Source of the DNA: a bacterium
GTDB lineage: Bacteria; Patescibacteriota; Minisyncoccia; Phycocordibacterales; UBA9973
Assembly (NCBI GenBank): GCA_037132055.1
Contig: JBAXPX010000001.1
Coordinates: 5,424-69,423, forward strand
Direction: 5' to 3'
DNA: 64,000 nucleotides
Below, in pieces: positions 21,221-63,668 of this stretch. The notes under the pieces were generated by a model. It was not told the origin of the DNA. It did not search any database and saw nothing but the letters and a program-made list of their open reading frames with translations. Within the stretch, counting starts at the first letter, position 1; each line of letters starts with the position of its first letter. The position numbers and the translations under genes were made by a program.

Positions 21221-21256
21221 AAAGCCTTCCTTTTCAGGGAAGGCTTTTTTATTTTA
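21221..21256. terminator. Bidirectional intrinsic terminator (AAAGCCTTCC-ttttcag-GGAAGGCTTT + T-run)
   Basis: 10-bp perfect stem flanked by T/A runs between convergent genes. Confidence 0.6.
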
Positions 21257-21946
21257 TGATACTAAAACCGTAAACTCCCCTTTTTGTTTTACTGGATTTT
21301 TTGTGAGATAGTCTAAAAGACTAGCTGGGCTATCTGTTTTAAACTCTTCATAAATTTTTGTTATCTCTCGAGCAATACAAACTTTTTTATCAGGGCAAAA
21401 TTTATTTAGAGATTCTAATGTTTTTAAAATCCTATGTGGCGATTCATAAAAAATCATCGTTCTCTTTGCCTCTGCTATTTCTTTAAATAAAGTTTCTCTG
21501 CCTTTTTTATGCGGTAAAAATCCTAAAAATGTAAATTCATGAGTTGTAAGACCTGAGGCAGAAAGTGCGGCTATTATAGCAGTCGCACCTGGAATCGGGA
21601 TAATATTAACTTCTTGTGAAGGACCGTCCTTCACAAGATATTTTTCTCGTATTTTTGAAATGAGAATCGCACCCGGATCGGAAATTGTCGGTGTTCCAGC
21701 ATCAGATACAAGTGCTAGATTTTTTCCTTCTTTTAGTAATTCAAAAATTTTATCTGTTTTAGATATTTTGGATTGTGCATGATAACTCATTGTCGGCTTA
21801 TTTATGGAATATTTATCAAGTAACCTTTTAGTTATTCTAGTGTCCTCACAAAGTATCAAATCCACACTTTTAAGCGTCTCCACTGCCCTATATGTAATAT
21901 CACCCATATTGCCTATCGGCGTCGCCACAACGTAAAATTTAGACAT
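21254..21946 (-). CDS. rsmI: 16S rRNA 2'-O-methyltransferase RsmI
   Basis: FYVVATPIGNMGDITYRAVETLKSVDLILCEDTR. The CDS carries a 25-bp in-frame palindromic insertion at 21613-21637. Confidence 0.8.
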   Translation of the reverse strand: MSKFYVVATPIGNMGDITYRAVETLKSVDLILCEDTRITKRLLDKYSINKPTMSYHAQSKISKTDKIFELLKEGKNLALVSDAGTPTISDPGAILISKIREKYLVKDGPSQEVNIIPIPGATAIIAALSASGLTTHEFTFLGFLPHKKGRETLFKEIAEAKRTMIFYESPHRILKTLESLNKFCPDKKVCIAREITKIYEEFKTDSPASLLDYLTKNPVKQKGEFTVLVS

Positions 21947-31231: not shown

Positions 31232-31335
31232 TAAAACTCCCCTCCTTGATGAGGAGGGGCTGGGGGTGGTGATTCTTTTAATTACCACCTCGTCTTGATA
31301 AATCAAGACACTCCTCCTTGGTAAGGAGGAGAACC

Positions 31336-56398: not shown

Positions 56399-57382
56399 AT
56401 GATATATGACCTTATAATTATTGGCGGAGGGCCGGCTGGATCTGCTGCTGCTGTGTACGCCGCTCGCAAACGCTTAAATACTTTATTTATTACCGATGAA
56501 TTCGGAGGGCAATCTATCGTGTCTGAAAAAATATATAACTGGATTGGCACAACTGAAATCGCTGGGTCAAAACTTGCGGAAGATCTCAAAAATCATGTAC
56601 TAGCTAATAAAGGAGAAAAGCTTACTATAAAAGAAGGTTTAACCGTAGTAGCCATTGTGAAGATTGTGAAGGACGGTCCTTCACAAAATTCACAAAACTG
56701 TGAAGGACCGTCCTTCACAAGCACAGGTATTTTTTCAATAAAAACTGAGTCGGGAGAAGAGTTTGAAACAAAGACTGTTTTAATAACTACAGGAAGTAAG
56801 CGTAGAAAATTAGAAATAAAAAACGCTGACAAATTGGAACATAAAGGACTCACCTACTGTGCTACTTGTGATGGACCAATGTTTTCTGGCGCTGATGTTG
56901 TAGTTGTCGGCGGGGGCAACGCTGCTTTTGAAAGCGCTTCTCAACTTCTCGCATATTGTAATTCCGTAACAATTTTAAATAGAAGTGATTCATTTCGAGC
57001 TGATCAAATAACGATAGACAAACTTTCAAAAAATCCAAAACTCAAAATTATAAAAAATATTGAACTTCTGGAAGTTTTGGGTGATAAATTTGTAGAAGGA
57101 ATAAAATATAAAGATATAAATACAAACAAAGAAAACACTCTCAATATCACTGGGATTTTCGTAGAAATAGGCCAAATTCCAAATACTGAATTCGCAAAAG
57201 ACCTTATTTCCCTTGATAAAATAGGCAAAATTAAAATAGACCCATGGACTGGAAAAACAGAAACTTCAGGCATTTGGGCAGCTGGTGATTGTACTAATAT
57301 TCTCTATCATCAAAACAACATCGCCGCTGGCGATGCTGTAAAAGCTTTGGAGGATATTTATTTAACAATACACACTAAATAA
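56399..57382 (+). CDS. trxB: Thioredoxin reductase
   Basis: IIGGGPAGSAAAVYAARK and the redox CATCDG. It contains about 60 bp of in-frame palindromic insert (56664-56720). Confidence 0.8.
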   Translation: MIYDLIIIGGGPAGSAAAVYAARKRLNTLFITDEFGGQSIVSEKIYNWIGTTEIAGSKLAEDLKNHVLANKGEKLTIKEGLTVVAIVKIVKDGPSQNSQNCEGPSFTSTGIFSIKTESGEEFETKTVLITTGSKRRKLEIKNADKLEHKGLTYCATCDGPMFSGADVVVVGGGNAAFESASQLLAYCNSVTILNRSDSFRADQITIDKLSKNPKLKIIKNIELLEVLGDKFVEGIKYKDINTNKENTLNITGIFVEIGQIPNTEFAKDLISLDKIGKIKIDPWTGKTETSGIWAAGDCTNILYHQNNIAAGDAVKALEDIYLTIHTK

Positions 57383-60063: not shown

Positions 60064-60094
60064 TGTCCGTTAATTATATCAAAACTTATGTATT

Positions 60095-60155
60095 TTGCGG
60101 TGTGTATTGGACAAAGTTCGAATTTATTTCGAACTTTGTCCAATACACACCGCAA
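60095..60155. repeat. 61-bp perfect palindrome (28-bp arms, 5-nt centre) abutting the left inverted repeat of recombinase unit 1
   Basis: TTGCGGTGTGTATTGGACAAAGTTCGAA-tttat-TTCGAACTTTGTCCAATACACACCGCAA. Confidence 0.8.
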
Positions 60156-61790
60156 CATTTGGAAATTGGGTTCCCCGCGAAAAAATGCGTCGGGGCGAAG
60201 CACCGACGACTGGGCTGAATTCCCGCCAAACCCCGCCCCCGCAAGGATTTCCCACACGGCGGAGCGCTCTTCGTTACCAATACAAAATATATGAATCAAA
60301 CCAAAAAATTTTTTATATATACTCGCAAGTCGACGGACGACAAAGACCATCAGATTAGAAGTATTTCTGATCAGCTTTCCGAATTGAAAGAATTAGCGTT
60401 GAAAGAACGATTAGAAATAGTTGATATCTTTGTCGAGAAGCAGTCTGCCAAAATACCAGGCCGTCCGATATTTAACGAAATGCTAGAACGTATGGAGAAA
60501 GGCGAAGCATCTGGTATTTTGGCGTGGCATCCTGATAGACTTGCGAGAAACTCGGTAGATGGAGGAAAAGTCATCTACCTCGTTGATACCGAAGTTATAA
60601 AAGATTTAAAATTTTCGACTTTTTGGTTTGATCCGACACCGCAAGGCAAATTTATGCTTTCAATCGCTTTTTCCCAATCCAAATATTATGTGGATAATTT
60701 ATCAGAGAATATTAAACGCGGACAAAGAAACAAAGTGAAGGAAGGAATATGGCCTCAAAATGCTCCGCTTGGTTATGTAAATAAAGAAGGTGGTGGAATT
60801 GAGCCAAATATTATTCTTGCTCCACTTATTAAAAAAGCATTTGAGGCCTATGCAACAGGCAACTTCACTTTGCGACAAGTCCGCGATAAATTTAACGCAC
60901 TTGGTTTAACAGGAAAAAGCGATGGAGACCTTTCGGTGTCTAATTATCAAAAACTTTTAAGAAATCCGATTTTTACGGGAATGATGAGATATAACGGCGA
61001 AATTTACGAAGGCAAACACGAACCGATTATTTCAAAGAAACTTTTTGATTCCGTTGCCGAAGTGATGAGTAAAAAATCTAAATCGCATAGCAAAGGATTG
61101 AAGCCGTATATTTATCGGGGATTTTTCCGTTGTGACGAATGTGGCTGTTTTATCACTACCGAACAACAAAAAGGTCATAACTATTTACGATGTACGAAAC
61201 GGAAAAATCCTTGCAATCAGAAATATACACGAGAAGAACTCATCACTTCCCAAATACAAGAAGAAATCAAAAAAGTTTCTTTGCCACTCGATTGGTTAGA
61301 ATGGATGATTGGTGAAAATAAAAAAGACCAATCACCCGAAGTAGAATCGAGTACGCTTTTTGTTGATAATGTAAAATCCGACATTTCTCTTTTAGAATCT
61401 AAAATTGAGAAGCTGATGACGATGTATTTAGAAAATGCCCTAACACTCGACGAATATCGCGATATGAAAAATAAGCTGATGAACGAAAAACAGCTTCTCA
61501 AAGAGAAATTGTCGGATTTAGAACAAAAAGCGAATAATCGGTTCGAACTTACCGAAAAGTTTTTGAAATTCAATATGGAATTGGTAAACGATAGAACAAA
61601 TGAAGAAAATATTCATTTGTTCAAAAAAGTCGGTTCGAACTTTAGAATAAAAGATCGAACACTCCTTTTTGAGCGCTCCGCCGTGTGGGAAATCCTTGCG
61701 GGGGCGGGGTTTGGCGGGAATTCAGCCCAGTCGTCGGTGCTTCGCCCCGACGCATTTTTTCGCGGGGAACCCAATTTCCAAATGTTGCGG
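60150..61790 (+). mobile_element. Recombinase unit 1: a large serine recombinase gene bounded by 120-bp perfect inverted repeats (IR-L 60150-60269, IR-R 61671-61790). IR-R abuts the 3' end of tRNA-Ser.
   Basis: The two 120-bp segments are exact reverse complements of each other. The recombinase ORF starts 21 nt after IR-L and reads into IR-R. Confidence 0.6.
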
Positions 61791-61814
61791 AGGGTACAGG
61801 ATTTGAACCTGTGA
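60291..61814 (+). CDS. Large serine recombinase (resolvase N-terminal domain, recombinase domain, zinc ribbon); its C-terminal ~48 codons are encoded by IR-R
   Basis: YTRKSTDDKD (catalytic Ser), WHPDRLARN, the recombinase-domain stretch LLRNPIFTGMMRYNGEIYEGKHEPIIS, and the zinc ribbon CDECGCF…YLRCTKRK. Confidence 0.75.
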   Translation: MNQTKKFFIYTRKSTDDKDHQIRSISDQLSELKELALKERLEIVDIFVEKQSAKIPGRPIFNEMLERMEKGEASGILAWHPDRLARNSVDGGKVIYLVDTEVIKDLKFSTFWFDPTPQGKFMLSIAFSQSKYYVDNLSENIKRGQRNKVKEGIWPQNAPLGYVNKEGGGIEPNIILAPLIKKAFEAYATGNFTLRQVRDKFNALGLTGKSDGDLSVSNYQKLLRNPIFTGMMRYNGEIYEGKHEPIISKKLFDSVAEVMSKKSKSHSKGLKPYIYRGFFRCDECGCFITTEQQKGHNYLRCTKRKNPCNQKYTREELITSQIQEEIKKVSLPLDWLEWMIGENKKDQSPEVESSTLFVDNVKSDISLLESKIEKLMTMYLENALTLDEYRDMKNKLMNEKQLLKEKLSDLEQKANNRFELTEKFLKFNMELVNDRTNEENIHLFKKVGSNFRIKDRTLLFERSAVWEILAGAGFGGNSAQSSVLRPDAFFRGEPNFQMLRRVQDLNL

Positions 61815-61936: not shown

Positions 61937-62008
61937 GGCCCTATCGTCTAACGGTTAGGACATCGGCTTTTCAAGCCGGTAATCCGGGTTCGATTCCCGG
62001 TAGGGTCA
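61937..62008 (+). tRNA. tRNA-Glu (anticodon UUC)
   Basis: GGCCCTATCGTCTAACGGTTAGGACATCGGCTTTTCAAGCCGGTAATCCGGGTTCGATTCCCGGTAGGGTCA. Confidence 0.75.
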
Positions 62009-63668
62009 CCTAAAGAGAGATTGTGGAAATTAGAAATATGGAGCGGGTTTTCAAAATGAAAACTCGCACTGGGTAGCCCGCTTCCGCCCTTTGCGGAAGC
62101 GACAAAATCCCAAATCTCGCCAGAATGCATATGAATTGTTTTGTCCTTGATTTCAGGGTTAGAGCCAATTTTTTGAAAAAATTGCTTCCATTCAATTTGA
62201 TTGTCAGTTTTTTCCAAATCAACGGCTTCTTTCAAGGACAAAACCAAAATCCGCAAGGGTTCGATCCAATACTTTCTCTGTTGTCCAAAATCTTTCAAAC
62301 TTTCCTCAATTCCAGCTTTTTGACGAAGTAAAATATCTTTTCGTTCCAAATATTGTGAGCGTTCAATATCTCCGTCTAAATATATAGAAACAAGTTTATC
62401 TAGTTTTTCTTTAATTTCGGAAAGTTCAGATTTTAGATTTTGGACAACATTTCCTTTTTCTGAAATTGATTCTTGTTCCCATTCGTCAATTTTCTTTTCC
62501 ATTTTTTCAATTTCAGAAAAAGGAATTGACGCTTTTTGAAGCGAAGTTTTGATTTGTTCGGAGAGTGTGGATTCTGAAAGATACGGCTGAGAGCAAAAAC
62601 CTTTCTTTTTTGTGCAACGATAATAAATATAACGAGTACCAAAACGATTGATAGAATATTGAGCCGTAATCATACTTCCACACTCGCCACATTTGGCAAA
62701 ACCGAGAAAATGAAATGGATGAGCGATTTTAGATTTTCTCGGTTTTTGCCGAGACTTCAAAACTTTCTGCACTGCTTCAAAAAGTGTCGGAGAAAGTATT
62801 GGTTCAAAGCTTCCATTGTGCCATTCGTTATGATGTTTGATAAATCCTAAATATGCACGATTGGTAAGTAATCGCACAATGCAAGCTTTGGCAAGTGGCT
62901 TTCCTATTTTTGTGACAAGTCCTAAATCCGCCAAATACTTCGCTAGTCCTTCAATAGTGTAAATATTTTTTGAATATTCTTCAAAAGCTCTTACTACAAT
63001 TTTTGAATATACAGGATGAGGTTCAATAGTTTTAGTTTTTAAGTTATTTATATATCCATACGGAGCTTTTGTCAGCCATTCCCCACGGCGAAGTTTTTGG
63101 CGGATTCCTCGTTTTACATTTTCAACCAAGTTGTCAGAAAAATATTTGGATTGTCCGAAAGCCACTTGCAACATGAATTTCCCTTGCGGAGTTGGTTCAA
63201 ACCAAAACTGCGGAAAGCGCAAAGAAACAATTTTGCCAGTATCAACAAGATAGATAACTTTTCCACCATCAACACTATTTCTCGCTAATCGGTCAGGATG
63301 CCATGCTAATATTCCATTTGCTTCACCTTTTTCTATCTTATCTATCATTCTGGCAAATTGTTTTCGTCCTGTGGTCTTTGCGCTTTTCGATTCGGTAAAA
63401 GTTTCTTTTACTGAAATATTTTCTCTGCGAGCATATTCTTTCAATTCAAAAAGTTGAGCTTCAATACTCATTACTTGTTTATCGTCATCTTCCGTTGATT
63501 TTCTCGCGTAGAGAAAATATTTGTTTTGATTTGAGGAATTCATATGCATTCTGGCGAGATTTGGGATTTTGTCGCTTCCGCAAAGGGCGGAAGCGGGCTA
63601 CCCAGTGCGAGTTTTCATTTTGAAAACCCGCTCCATATTTCTAATTTCCACAATCTCTCTTTAGGTGA
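62006..63668 (-). mobile_element. Recombinase unit 2: a paralogous large serine recombinase gene bounded by ~132-bp perfect inverted repeats (IR-L 62006-62137, IR-R 63537-63668). IR-L begins within the last 3 nt of tRNA-Glu(UUC).
   Basis: Exact reverse-complement identity over about 130 bp. The repeat covers the recombinase start codon (ATGCATATG) at one end and the tRNA 3' end (TCACC) at the other. Confidence 0.6.
62138..63549 (-). CDS. Large serine recombinase, paralog of the 60291-61814 gene. The track's ORF extends to 61948 across IR-L and the tRNA; the true stop is uncertain.
   Basis: YARKSTEDDDKQ (catalytic Ser), GILAWHPDRLARNSVDGGKVIYLVDT (identical to the stretch in unit 1), recombinase domain, and the zinc ribbon CGECGSMITAQ…YYRCTKKK. 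Confidence 0.7.

Follow-up and report, generated by a model that had tools for sequence, protein, structure and literature searches.

A REP-like palindrome inserted in frame into conserved proteins of Paceibacteria and probably spread by a RAYT-like transposase

To our knowledge, the systems formed by repetitive extragenic palindromes (REPs) and REP-associated tyrosine transposases (RAYTs) have been characterised almost only in Proteobacteria, where they are treated as extragenic. Rickettsia palindromic elements (RPEs), reportedly described by Ogata and colleagues in 2000, are a second class of small palindromic repeats, and we know of no transposase for them. RPE-1-type elements measure about 105-146 bp, and in-frame repeat insertions have been reviewed (PMC3184786). 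Di Nocera, De Gregorio and Rocco (2013) described intragenic REPs of the GTAG/CGTC super-families, often dimers, in "REP-decorated proteins" (PMC3733652). These REPs encode about 8-30 amino acids (aa), and replication and repair genes (uvrA, uvrB, dnaE, recBCD) are over-represented among their hosts; intergenic REPs lie within 20 bp of the 3' ends of genes, RAYT genes flanked by repeats form "REPtrons", and the short RPE-4 and RPE-6 of Rickettsia are equated with REPs (PMC3733652). A housekeeping-like behaviour of RAYTs has also been described (PMC5581495). Here, we analyse a 64-kb stretch of contig JBAXPX010000001.1 (hereafter the window), from a tiny groundwater or lake bacterium (Paceibacteria/Nomurabacteria), in which a short palindrome is inserted in frame into two host genes, rsmI and a trxB-type gene. 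We argue that this palindrome is probably a REP-like hairpin of Paceibacteria, recognised, and most likely spread via single-stranded DNA (ssDNA), by a cognate RAYT-like HUH/Y1 transposase.

The 19-nt core of the palindrome, GTGAAGGACSGTCCTTCAC, occurs exactly three times in the window, once in rsmI and twice in trxB (Table 1), and a search tolerating up to three mismatches returned the same three copies with none added. By chance, 0.01 matches are expected on average, and none of 100 dinucleotide-preserving shuffles gave three copies. The G+C content of the window is 30-39%. All three copies lie within long open reading frames (ORFs) and keep the frame; the palindrome has two open frames per strand, the third one containing TGA. 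An earlier note on this DNA had reported three copies, all coding, with opposite asymmetric centres in the two trxB copies and a short peptide added in frame to each protein (VKDGPSQ in one orientation, CEGPSFT in the other). The exact and mismatch-tolerant searches, the ORF positions and the translations agree with it on each of these points, and only its 13-nt spacer between the trxB copies has to be corrected to 12 nt.

RsmI matches the Pfam family TP_methylase and aligns with PDB entry 5hw4 (E = 8e-48), the insert falling opposite a gap of 9 columns; protein P0121, identical to the RsmI of the window, bears the same enzyme name at NCBI. The insert of about eight residues, read L-V-K-D-G-P-S-Q on the coding (minus) strand, sits in the loop that joins the ISDPG...IREKY helix to the IIPIPG strand. 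The TrxB-type reductase has a CATC active site, matches Pfam Pyr_redox_2 and aligns with PDB entries 1fl2/1hyu (E = 1e-56) and 5uth (E = 1e-49). Its insert lies in the N-terminal flavin adenine dinucleotide (FAD) domain, and the alignment with 1hyu (AhpF/TrxR) opens a gap exactly there. It adds exactly 19 residues, VKDGPSQ-NSQN-CEGPSFT. The edges were set by DNA alignment with the empty site of locus L053, where GTTTCAAAG and GAAGAAGG are adjacent; the protein encoded there is P0004, not the closest orthologue, P0002. The first 9 nt of the insert are also present immediately before it, which leaves up to 9 nt of uncertainty in the boundary. Such a direct repeat was seen at the trxB junction only, none being evident at rsmI or in the flanks of other copies.

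Among the 120 best database relatives compared for each protein, the closest TrxB orthologues (80% identical) lack the insert and have 308 aa versus 327, and the closest RsmI orthologues (85-87% identical) lack theirs and have 223-224 aa versus 230. The rsmI insert is also missing from orthologues P0123-P0128 and from the DNA of L055. The insert-spanning peptides are IVKDGPSQNSQNCEGPSFTS and YLVKDGPSQEV. The rsmI and trxB copies are true lineage-specific insertions, as the earlier note had supposed, and the homologue alignments place them where it had put them, between ISDPG and PIPG in RsmI and within the FAD domain of TrxB. On the AlphaFold2 model of TrxB, the insert maps to a predicted low-confidence loop: residues 94-108 have a pLDDT below 50 and lie at a beta-hairpin turn that links strand 83-89 to strand 111-116. 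Folded as ssDNA, the trxB doublet gives one 22-bp hairpin (-26.8 kcal/mol, z = -9.8) and the rsmI copy a 12-bp hairpin (-12 kcal/mol, z = -7.6).

Library linkers can yield perfect palindromes, and an assembly or sequencing artefact, for instance a palindromic adapter or linker, was considered. However, four assemblies made independently at different centres (GCA_964565115.1, JGI 3300021520 and two from ENA) have contigs that encode the same 327-aa TrxB, insert included, and an assembly artefact is therefore excluded. In addition, neither insert disrupts the frame, other lineages have compensatory variants (see below) and the viral and plasmid collections held no copy. Overall, an artefact is hardly credible.

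In related genomes, the palindrome brackets the gene of a 228-240-aa transposase (L002, L003/L046, L004, L011, L013, L023, L025, L035). It is positioned at three places of this gene: about 14 nt before the ATG, inside the ORF and at the 3' end, where it is often translated as VKDGPSQ, with the stop codon next. A promoter-like TTGTCA-N17-TAATAT, assigned by eye, precedes the 5' copy. The protein matches Pfam Y1_Tnp with 31.6 bits (cut-off 23), and both an HUH motif (LMPNHFH) and the tyrosine of YIHLNP are invariant in the family alignment. The family comprises 5488 database proteins at E <1e-10, named "transposase" in metagenome-assembled genomes (MAGs) of Paceibacteria/Patescibacteria. The best fold match of the AlphaFold2 model (pLDDT 88.9) is PDB entry 4er8 (E = 4.7e-7), the structure of E. 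coli TnpA_REP bound to a REP hairpin, and the TnpA proteins of ISDra2 and IS608 rank behind it (E = 1.6e-4 or worse). By predicted fold, the protein would be a RAYT-like HUH/Y1 transposase, nearest in structure to E. coli TnpA_REP.

The gene order dnaK - hypothetical gene - transposase - PaaX-like gene - grpE is found in L060, L013, L003/L046, L004 and L023, and the dnaK-grpE order is kept across genomes whose transposases are 58-82% identical, a domesticated-like trait that agrees with the housekeeping-like behaviour of RAYTs (PMC5581495). In L025, the distance from the 5' to the 3' hairpin is about 715 bp and the two ends are identical and directly oriented, a size near that of IS200. The dispersed hairpins could then be solo ends of an autonomous IS200/IS605-like element (hairpin-tnpA-hairpin), left after deletion between the ends. 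However, the transposase gene is fixed beside dnaK across divergent genomes and not scattered, a 0.7-kb insertion in dnaE, uvrB, topA or trxB would kill an essential gene before the deletion could occur, and inverted doublets stay unexplained. We consider an origin from solo ends very unlikely.

A PaaX-like protein, with a winged helix and a PF20803 Cas2-like domain, is always encoded directly after the transposase, between dnaK and grpE, in L002, L003/L046, L004, L011, L023, L025, L035 and L060-L062. The loop of its winged helix-turn-helix is another hot spot for palindromes. Instead of partnering the transposase, it may regulate the heat-shock response of these bacteria, and a tblastn search of the window returned no homologue of it.

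Six transposase lineages are each bracketed by their own variant of the palindrome, in which changes in one arm are compensated in the other (Table 1). The variant of L065/L066 was foretold from the peptide VKVGPSQ before the DNA was read, and that of L063 is also present as a doublet within an RsmH-like gene. In an alignment of 13 hairpins, 6 of the 11 stem pairs were changed on both sides and 97.8% of the cells were paired. Neither any of 500 shuffles nor any slid register matched the observed co-variation score.

The exact 19-mer was found at 12 loci in representative genomes and at 35 in metagenomes, the genomes named as hosts being Parcubacteria, Nomurabacteria and Minisyncoccia MAGs. Copies were counted on low-GC Paceibacteria-type contigs, with duplicates and high-G+C contigs removed, which left 36 distinct copies. 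Eleven of these lie in frame inside host genes other than the transposase gene. A further 10 belong to the transposase gene or its immediate surroundings, and the intergenic ones, about 15, as a rule sit 6-35 nt past a stop codon and have copy-specific stem extensions. Singlets measure 19-27 bp and doublets 36-57 bp. In DnaE, a doublet adds 23 aa between residues 883 and 884, which are adjacent in PDB entry 2hpi; TopA and UvrB have about 11-15 (again a doublet) and 13 extra residues, respectively, compared with solved homologues, those of UvrB directly before helicase motif II. A SAM-methyltransferase and a PaaX-like regulator are further in-frame hosts. The core is preceded by T-Y-Y and followed by R-R-A, and the two flanks of any one copy complement each other. 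The two units had opposite centres or loops in all six doublets inspected (window, L005, L020, L052, L063, L064). Miniature inverted-repeat transposable elements have terminal inverted repeats around an internal sequence and a target-site duplication; here, one palindrome makes up the entire unit, and the 9-nt direct repeat at the trxB junction is the only one seen.

The intergenic positions 6-35 nt past stop codons, the extended GC-rich stems and, in some copies (L007, L008, L032), T-runs would also suit a host cis-regulatory or structural element selected in place, whether terminator, attenuator, mRNA stabiliser or protein-binding site, the coding copies then modulating transcription or translation of their host genes. 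The copy before the transposase ATG, downstream of the promoter-like sequence, recalls the hairpin in the 5' untranslated region of IS200, and in a simple scan the rsmI copy was terminator-like on the coding strand. On the other hand, the same sequence resides in unrelated genes, close orthologues manage without the inserts, unrelated palindromes occupy the same loops in other lineages, and the trxB copies were not flagged as terminators on the sense strand. Selection in place appears improbable to us; a regulatory function would be a secondary exaptation, as argued for REPs in general.

Other origins were examined and set aside. An exact-match scan of viral contigs contained no copy of the palindrome and PHROGs gave no match for the transposase, which leaves a phage origin unsupported; a blastn search of a plasmid collection with a high-GC extended palindrome also gave no match. 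Half-sites resemble those of Rex (TTGTGAA-N4-TTCACAA) or of a CRP-type operator, but the spacing is 9-11 nt, and an operator of either type was rejected. An uptake signal sequence was rejected, since the copies are added residues and not recoded codons, and are rare.

The same 19-mer is present in unrelated high-GC soil contigs (55-73% GC: L010, L015, L017, L027, L033, L034, L037, L038, L042-L045) and at a locus of 44-49% GC (L031, L036, L039, L047). These copies have unrelated flanks, intergenic or 5' positions and no transposase homologue. Those of the high-GC contigs carry extended arms of their own, for example CGTTCTGGTT-core-AACCAGAACG; in L044, the left arm is that of L043 and the right arm that of L017. 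This high-GC set resembles a small repeat family of its own. Only about 5e5 sequences are possible for a 9+1+9 palindrome. Horizontal spread to these contigs was rejected in favour of coincidence, about 4 chance matches being estimated in some 1e12 bases, and the 19-mer there is probably a coincidence among natural palindromes.

By analogy with IS608, ISDra2 and E. coli TnpA_REP, the transposase would mobilise the hairpin by cutting and pasting it, or copying it, on ssDNA. Insertions would land widely and selection would retain the harmless ones: outside genes, those directly past stop codons; within genes, those whose length is a multiple of three, that enter in one of the two stop-free frames and that fall in a surface loop. 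The surviving inserts would encode short Gly/Pro/Ser-rich peptides such as VKDGPSQ and EGPSFT and would bring the host no gain. Copy-specific complementary flanks would arise later, through template-switch correction of quasi-palindromes.

Several results weigh against this proposal. Using the transposase as tblastn query, no Y1 transposase gene was found in the 64-kb window. Contigs with a matching transposase share the JGI metagenome Ga0194053 (L035, L051), and tetranucleotide frequencies of L013/L025/L035 correlate with those of the window at r = 0.99, a value that close relatives equal. The sole NCBIfam match of the transposase, REP_Tyr_transpos, scores 48 bits, below the cut-off of 80, and sequence matches in the PDB are weak (E = 0.03-0.07, best 4er8). 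None of the 36 copies has a GTAG, GTGG or CGTC tag at the foot of its stem, and where CGTC does occur, it is in the palindrome centre. Copy number is low, at 1-6 exact copies per representative MAG versus tens to hundreds for classical REPs. Finally, in the MAG JBAQUS01 a window-type palindrome is found in uvrB (L012) and the transposase (L057) is flanked by GTGGAAGACGGTCTTCCAC; the uvrB copy could be left over from an earlier specificity, or a second transposase could be present in the genome.

The lack of a transposase in the window and the mismatch between the uvrB copy and the transposase-flanking variant in JBAQUS01 would also suit an RPE-type selfish palindrome without a dedicated enzyme. 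Such an element would be spread by host recombination, gene conversion or template switching, the transposase gene merely offering tolerated sites. The in-frame, loop-located behaviour is as for RPEs, and the 9-nt repeat at the trxB junction, ATTGTGAAG followed by ATTGTGAAG, fits template switching or microhomology, as do the complementary flanks. However, in at least seven independent transposase lineages the palindromes on either side of the gene keep their relative positions and vary in sequence with the lineage, which is unexpected for random insertions, and the predicted fold is that of a hairpin-binding ssDNA transposase. Spread without a dedicated enzyme is, in our view, rather unlikely, and we retain spread by the cognate transposase as the more probable reading.

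The loops that received the palindrome in the window are hot spots for insertion. At the TrxB turn, at least 24 of the 120 orthologues have six or more extra residues, which fall into at least eight peptide families (RPSQSCEGRSF, AEGPELGEG, PKALSEDSALG, DVGRLESRRPTSV, EALLSQNGESKASA, RTVLKEVSPRTVLEN and others). In the RsmI loop, 44 of 120 orthologues have four or more extra residues, with 38 distinct sequences. All the inserts of these two loops whose DNA was read are palindromic doublets. The hot spots may reflect structural tolerance, targeting, or the replacement of one REP by another.

The palindrome inside the transposase ORF encodes F-R-E-G-R-S-F-T-E, a motif that is conserved over 120 aligned homologues and is not a lineage-specific insert. 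Its variants are EGRTF, EGLSF, KGETF, KGETL and EGRAF, and its codons form reverse-complement pairs (E/F, G/S, G/T, K/L). In its DNA, the internal segment is identical or almost identical to the flanking hairpin in L002, L003, L004, L011, L023, L025, L058, L060 and L008, is partly decayed in L059 and L065, and is absent or non-palindromic in L057, L063, L040 and L041. Tentatively, a master copy of the hairpin could be kept inside the transposase coding sequence, sheltered by selection on the protein and co-evolving with the flanking and dispersed copies, which would also explain the hot-spot loops. This idea is doubtful. If it were true, the hairpin would have evolved within an ORF and would hence be pre-fitted for translation in four of six frames, and its ready colonisation of coding loops would be explained. 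The re-occupation of the TrxB, RsmI and PaaX-like loops by different palindrome families would then point to site-directed insertion or REP-by-REP replacement. Our literature search found no published description of a cognate hairpin within a transposase ORF.

Table 1 Features of the window and of related loci. Positions refer to the window unless a locus is named.
Feature	Position or locus	Strand	Sequence	Description
rsmI	21254-21946	minus	...EKYLVKDGPSQEVNIIPIPG	16S rRNA C1402 2'-O-methyltransferase, 230 aa
Full palindrome in rsmI	21612-21638		TCTTGTGAAGGACCGTCCTTCACAAGA	27 nt, perfect; core 21616-21634
trxB-type gene	56399-57382	plus	...VKIVKDGPSQNSQNCEGPSFTSTG	TrxB/AhpF-type FAD-dependent pyridine-nucleotide disulfide reductase, 327 aa
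9 nt preceding the trxB insert	56654-56662		ATTGTGAAG	
trxB insert	56663-56719	plus	IVKDGPSQNSQNCEGPSFT	57 nt, in frame, codons 89-107; inverted doublet with 12-nt spacer
Full palindrome, trxB copy A	56664-56686		TTGTGAAGGACGGTCCTTCACAA	23 nt; centre G; core 56666-56684; read V-K-D-G-P-S-Q
Spacer between copies A and B	56687-56698		AATTCACAAAAC	12 nt
Full palindrome, trxB copy B	56699-56719		TGTGAAGGACCGTCCTTCACA	21 nt; centre C; core 56700-56718
Copy B as hairpin feature	56699-56720		TGTGAAGGACCGTCCTTCACAA	Reversed orientation with respect to copy A; translated one frame over as C-E-G-P-S-F-T
Palindrome flanking transposase	L060		GTAAAGGACGGTCCTTTAC	Arms GTAAAGGAC.GTCCTTTAC
Palindrome flanking transposase	L065/L066		GTGAAGGTCGGACCTTCAC	Arms GTGAAGGTC.GACCTTCAC
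Palindrome flanking transposase	L057		GTGGAAGACGGTCTTCCAC	Arms GTGGAAGAC.GTCTTCCAC
Palindrome flanking transposase	L058		ACAAAGGTGAAACCTTTGT	ACAAAGGTgaaACCTTTGT
Palindrome flanking transposase	L059		CCAGAAGGAATGACCTTCTGG	CCAGAAGGaatgaCCTTCTGG
Palindrome flanking transposase	L063		ACTTGGAGGTTCTTCCTCCAAGT	ACTTGGAGGttcttCCTCCAAGT
Palindrome	L008		AATTCGGCTAT-N3-ATAGCCGAAT	Upstream of the transposase gene and inside the ORF
Loop doublet	L052		CTCCGACCTTCGCAA-TCT-TGCGAAGGTCGGAG	
Loop doublet	L063		AAGAACGGTTCTT...AAGAACCGTTCTT	
Loop insert	L064		GAAGACGGTCTTC and GAAGACCGTCTTC	47-nt perfect palindrome containing both sequences
Second TrxB indel hot spot	~56609-56615			Near residue 71, loop ANKGEKL
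Second palindrome family	31311-31331; L060 3375-3399; L063 16343-16365; L064 2534-2558 and 16154-16176; L025 (PaaX-like gene)		CCCTCTCCTT-N3-AAGGAGAGGG	
First large serine recombinase gene	60291-61814	plus		
Inverted repeat of first recombinase	60139-60269 / 61671-61801			97% complementary
Second large serine recombinase gene	61948-63549	minus		
Inverted repeat of second recombinase	62006-62137 / 63537-63668			100% complementary
Hairpin 5' of first recombinase gene	60092-60158			31-nt arms, 97% complementary; 5-nt loop
Recombinase and reverse transcriptase genes	L054 8762-12090			Large serine recombinase, helix-turn-helix protein, reverse transcriptase (RVT_1)

Further features of the window and its relatives are listed in Table 1. 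At the second indel hot spot of TrxB, 34 of 120 orthologues have four or more extra residues, and L052 (P0005) has an insert there as well. A second widespread palindrome family looks like the pairing of a Shine-Dalgarno with an anti-Shine-Dalgarno sequence and, within the PaaX-like gene, fills the loop held by the window-type palindrome in other lineages. The window also contains two neighbouring genes of large serine recombinases, each spanned by an inverted repeat of 131-132 nt with about 1400 nt between the arms, one arm lying over the promoter and start and the other over the 3' coding part. The pair looks like invertible or self-contained recombinase elements. A long hairpin just 5' of the first recombinase gene overlaps the start of its inverted repeat. 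In a close relative, L054, another large serine recombinase is encoded downstream of the trxB neighbourhood.

These observations bring REP/RAYT logic, in a very large transposase family, to the Candidate Phyla Radiation (CPR). The genomes are small and dense in genes, and about one third of the hairpin copies found in them (11/36) are translated, within essential proteins such as DnaE, UvrB, TopA, TrxB and RsmI. Some of the short insertions observed here in CPR proteins, specific to single lineages, thereby acquire a concrete origin. The natural hairpin-transposase pairs, with their compensatory changes, offer a test set for how Y1 enzymes read their substrates. For annotation, such inserts should be taken neither for assembly errors nor for functional motifs.

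The palindrome brackets the gene of a dedicated transposase, and therefore the closest described family is REP/RAYT with its intragenic REPs. As in the REP-decorated proteins, the elements are short palindromes, often dimers, contained wholly within ORFs, and the hosts here include UvrB, DnaE and TopA; intergenic copies lie near 3' gene ends and the transposase gene is flanked by repeats. In contrast to those REPs, the palindromes of Paceibacteria lack a GTAG/CGTC tag at the stem foot, are perfect with a 1-nt asymmetric centre and have a low copy number. Their host phylum is Patescibacteria (CPR), a cognate hairpin is found inside the transposase ORF, and palindromes of different families recur in the same protein loops.

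With E. coli REP/TnpA_REP and the REPIN/RAYT systems of Pseudomonas (Bertels and Rainey; PMC5581495), the Paceibacteria system shares the predicted HUH/Y1 fold (best match 4er8), a single conserved locus, a gene flanked by hairpins and inverted doublets that form one long hairpin. It differs from them in a transposase that stays below the NCBIfam equivalog cut-off (48 vs 80 bits) and is extended both at its C-terminus and by an additional segment, about 25 aa long, in which the EGRSF motif lies. Copies number at most in the tens and not in the hundreds, and the repeats are not only extragenic, since all three window copies and 11 of 36 overall are in host genes, exceptions of a kind already documented (PMC3733652).

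The earlier note had likened the palindrome to RPEs. The likeness in behaviour stands: it is mobile, palindromic selfish DNA, in frame in conserved genes of a reduced genome, tolerated at the protein surface and not destructive to conserved enzymes. The family assignment, in contrast, is refined to REP/RAYT, as the units of 19-27 bp and even the 57-nt doublet insert are shorter than the roughly 105-146 bp of RPE-1-type elements, and a cognate Y1 transposase exists. In IS200/IS605 elements (IS200, IS608, ISDra2), too, two subterminal hairpins enclose a Y1 HUH gene, the unit measuring about 0.7 kb, and in IS200 one hairpin likewise sits between promoter and start codon. However, the end hairpins here are identical and perfect instead of distinct, imperfect left and right ends, and the transposase stays at one syntenic locus across genomes, the hairpin alone being dispersed. 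A search for CPR-specific literature on in-frame palindromes or RAYTs found nothing relevant. Overall, the palindrome probably belongs to a new branch of REP/RAYT, RPE-like in its effect on proteins and not a member of the RPE family; the CPR lineage, the absent GTAG tag and the cognate hairpin in the transposase ORF appear to be new.

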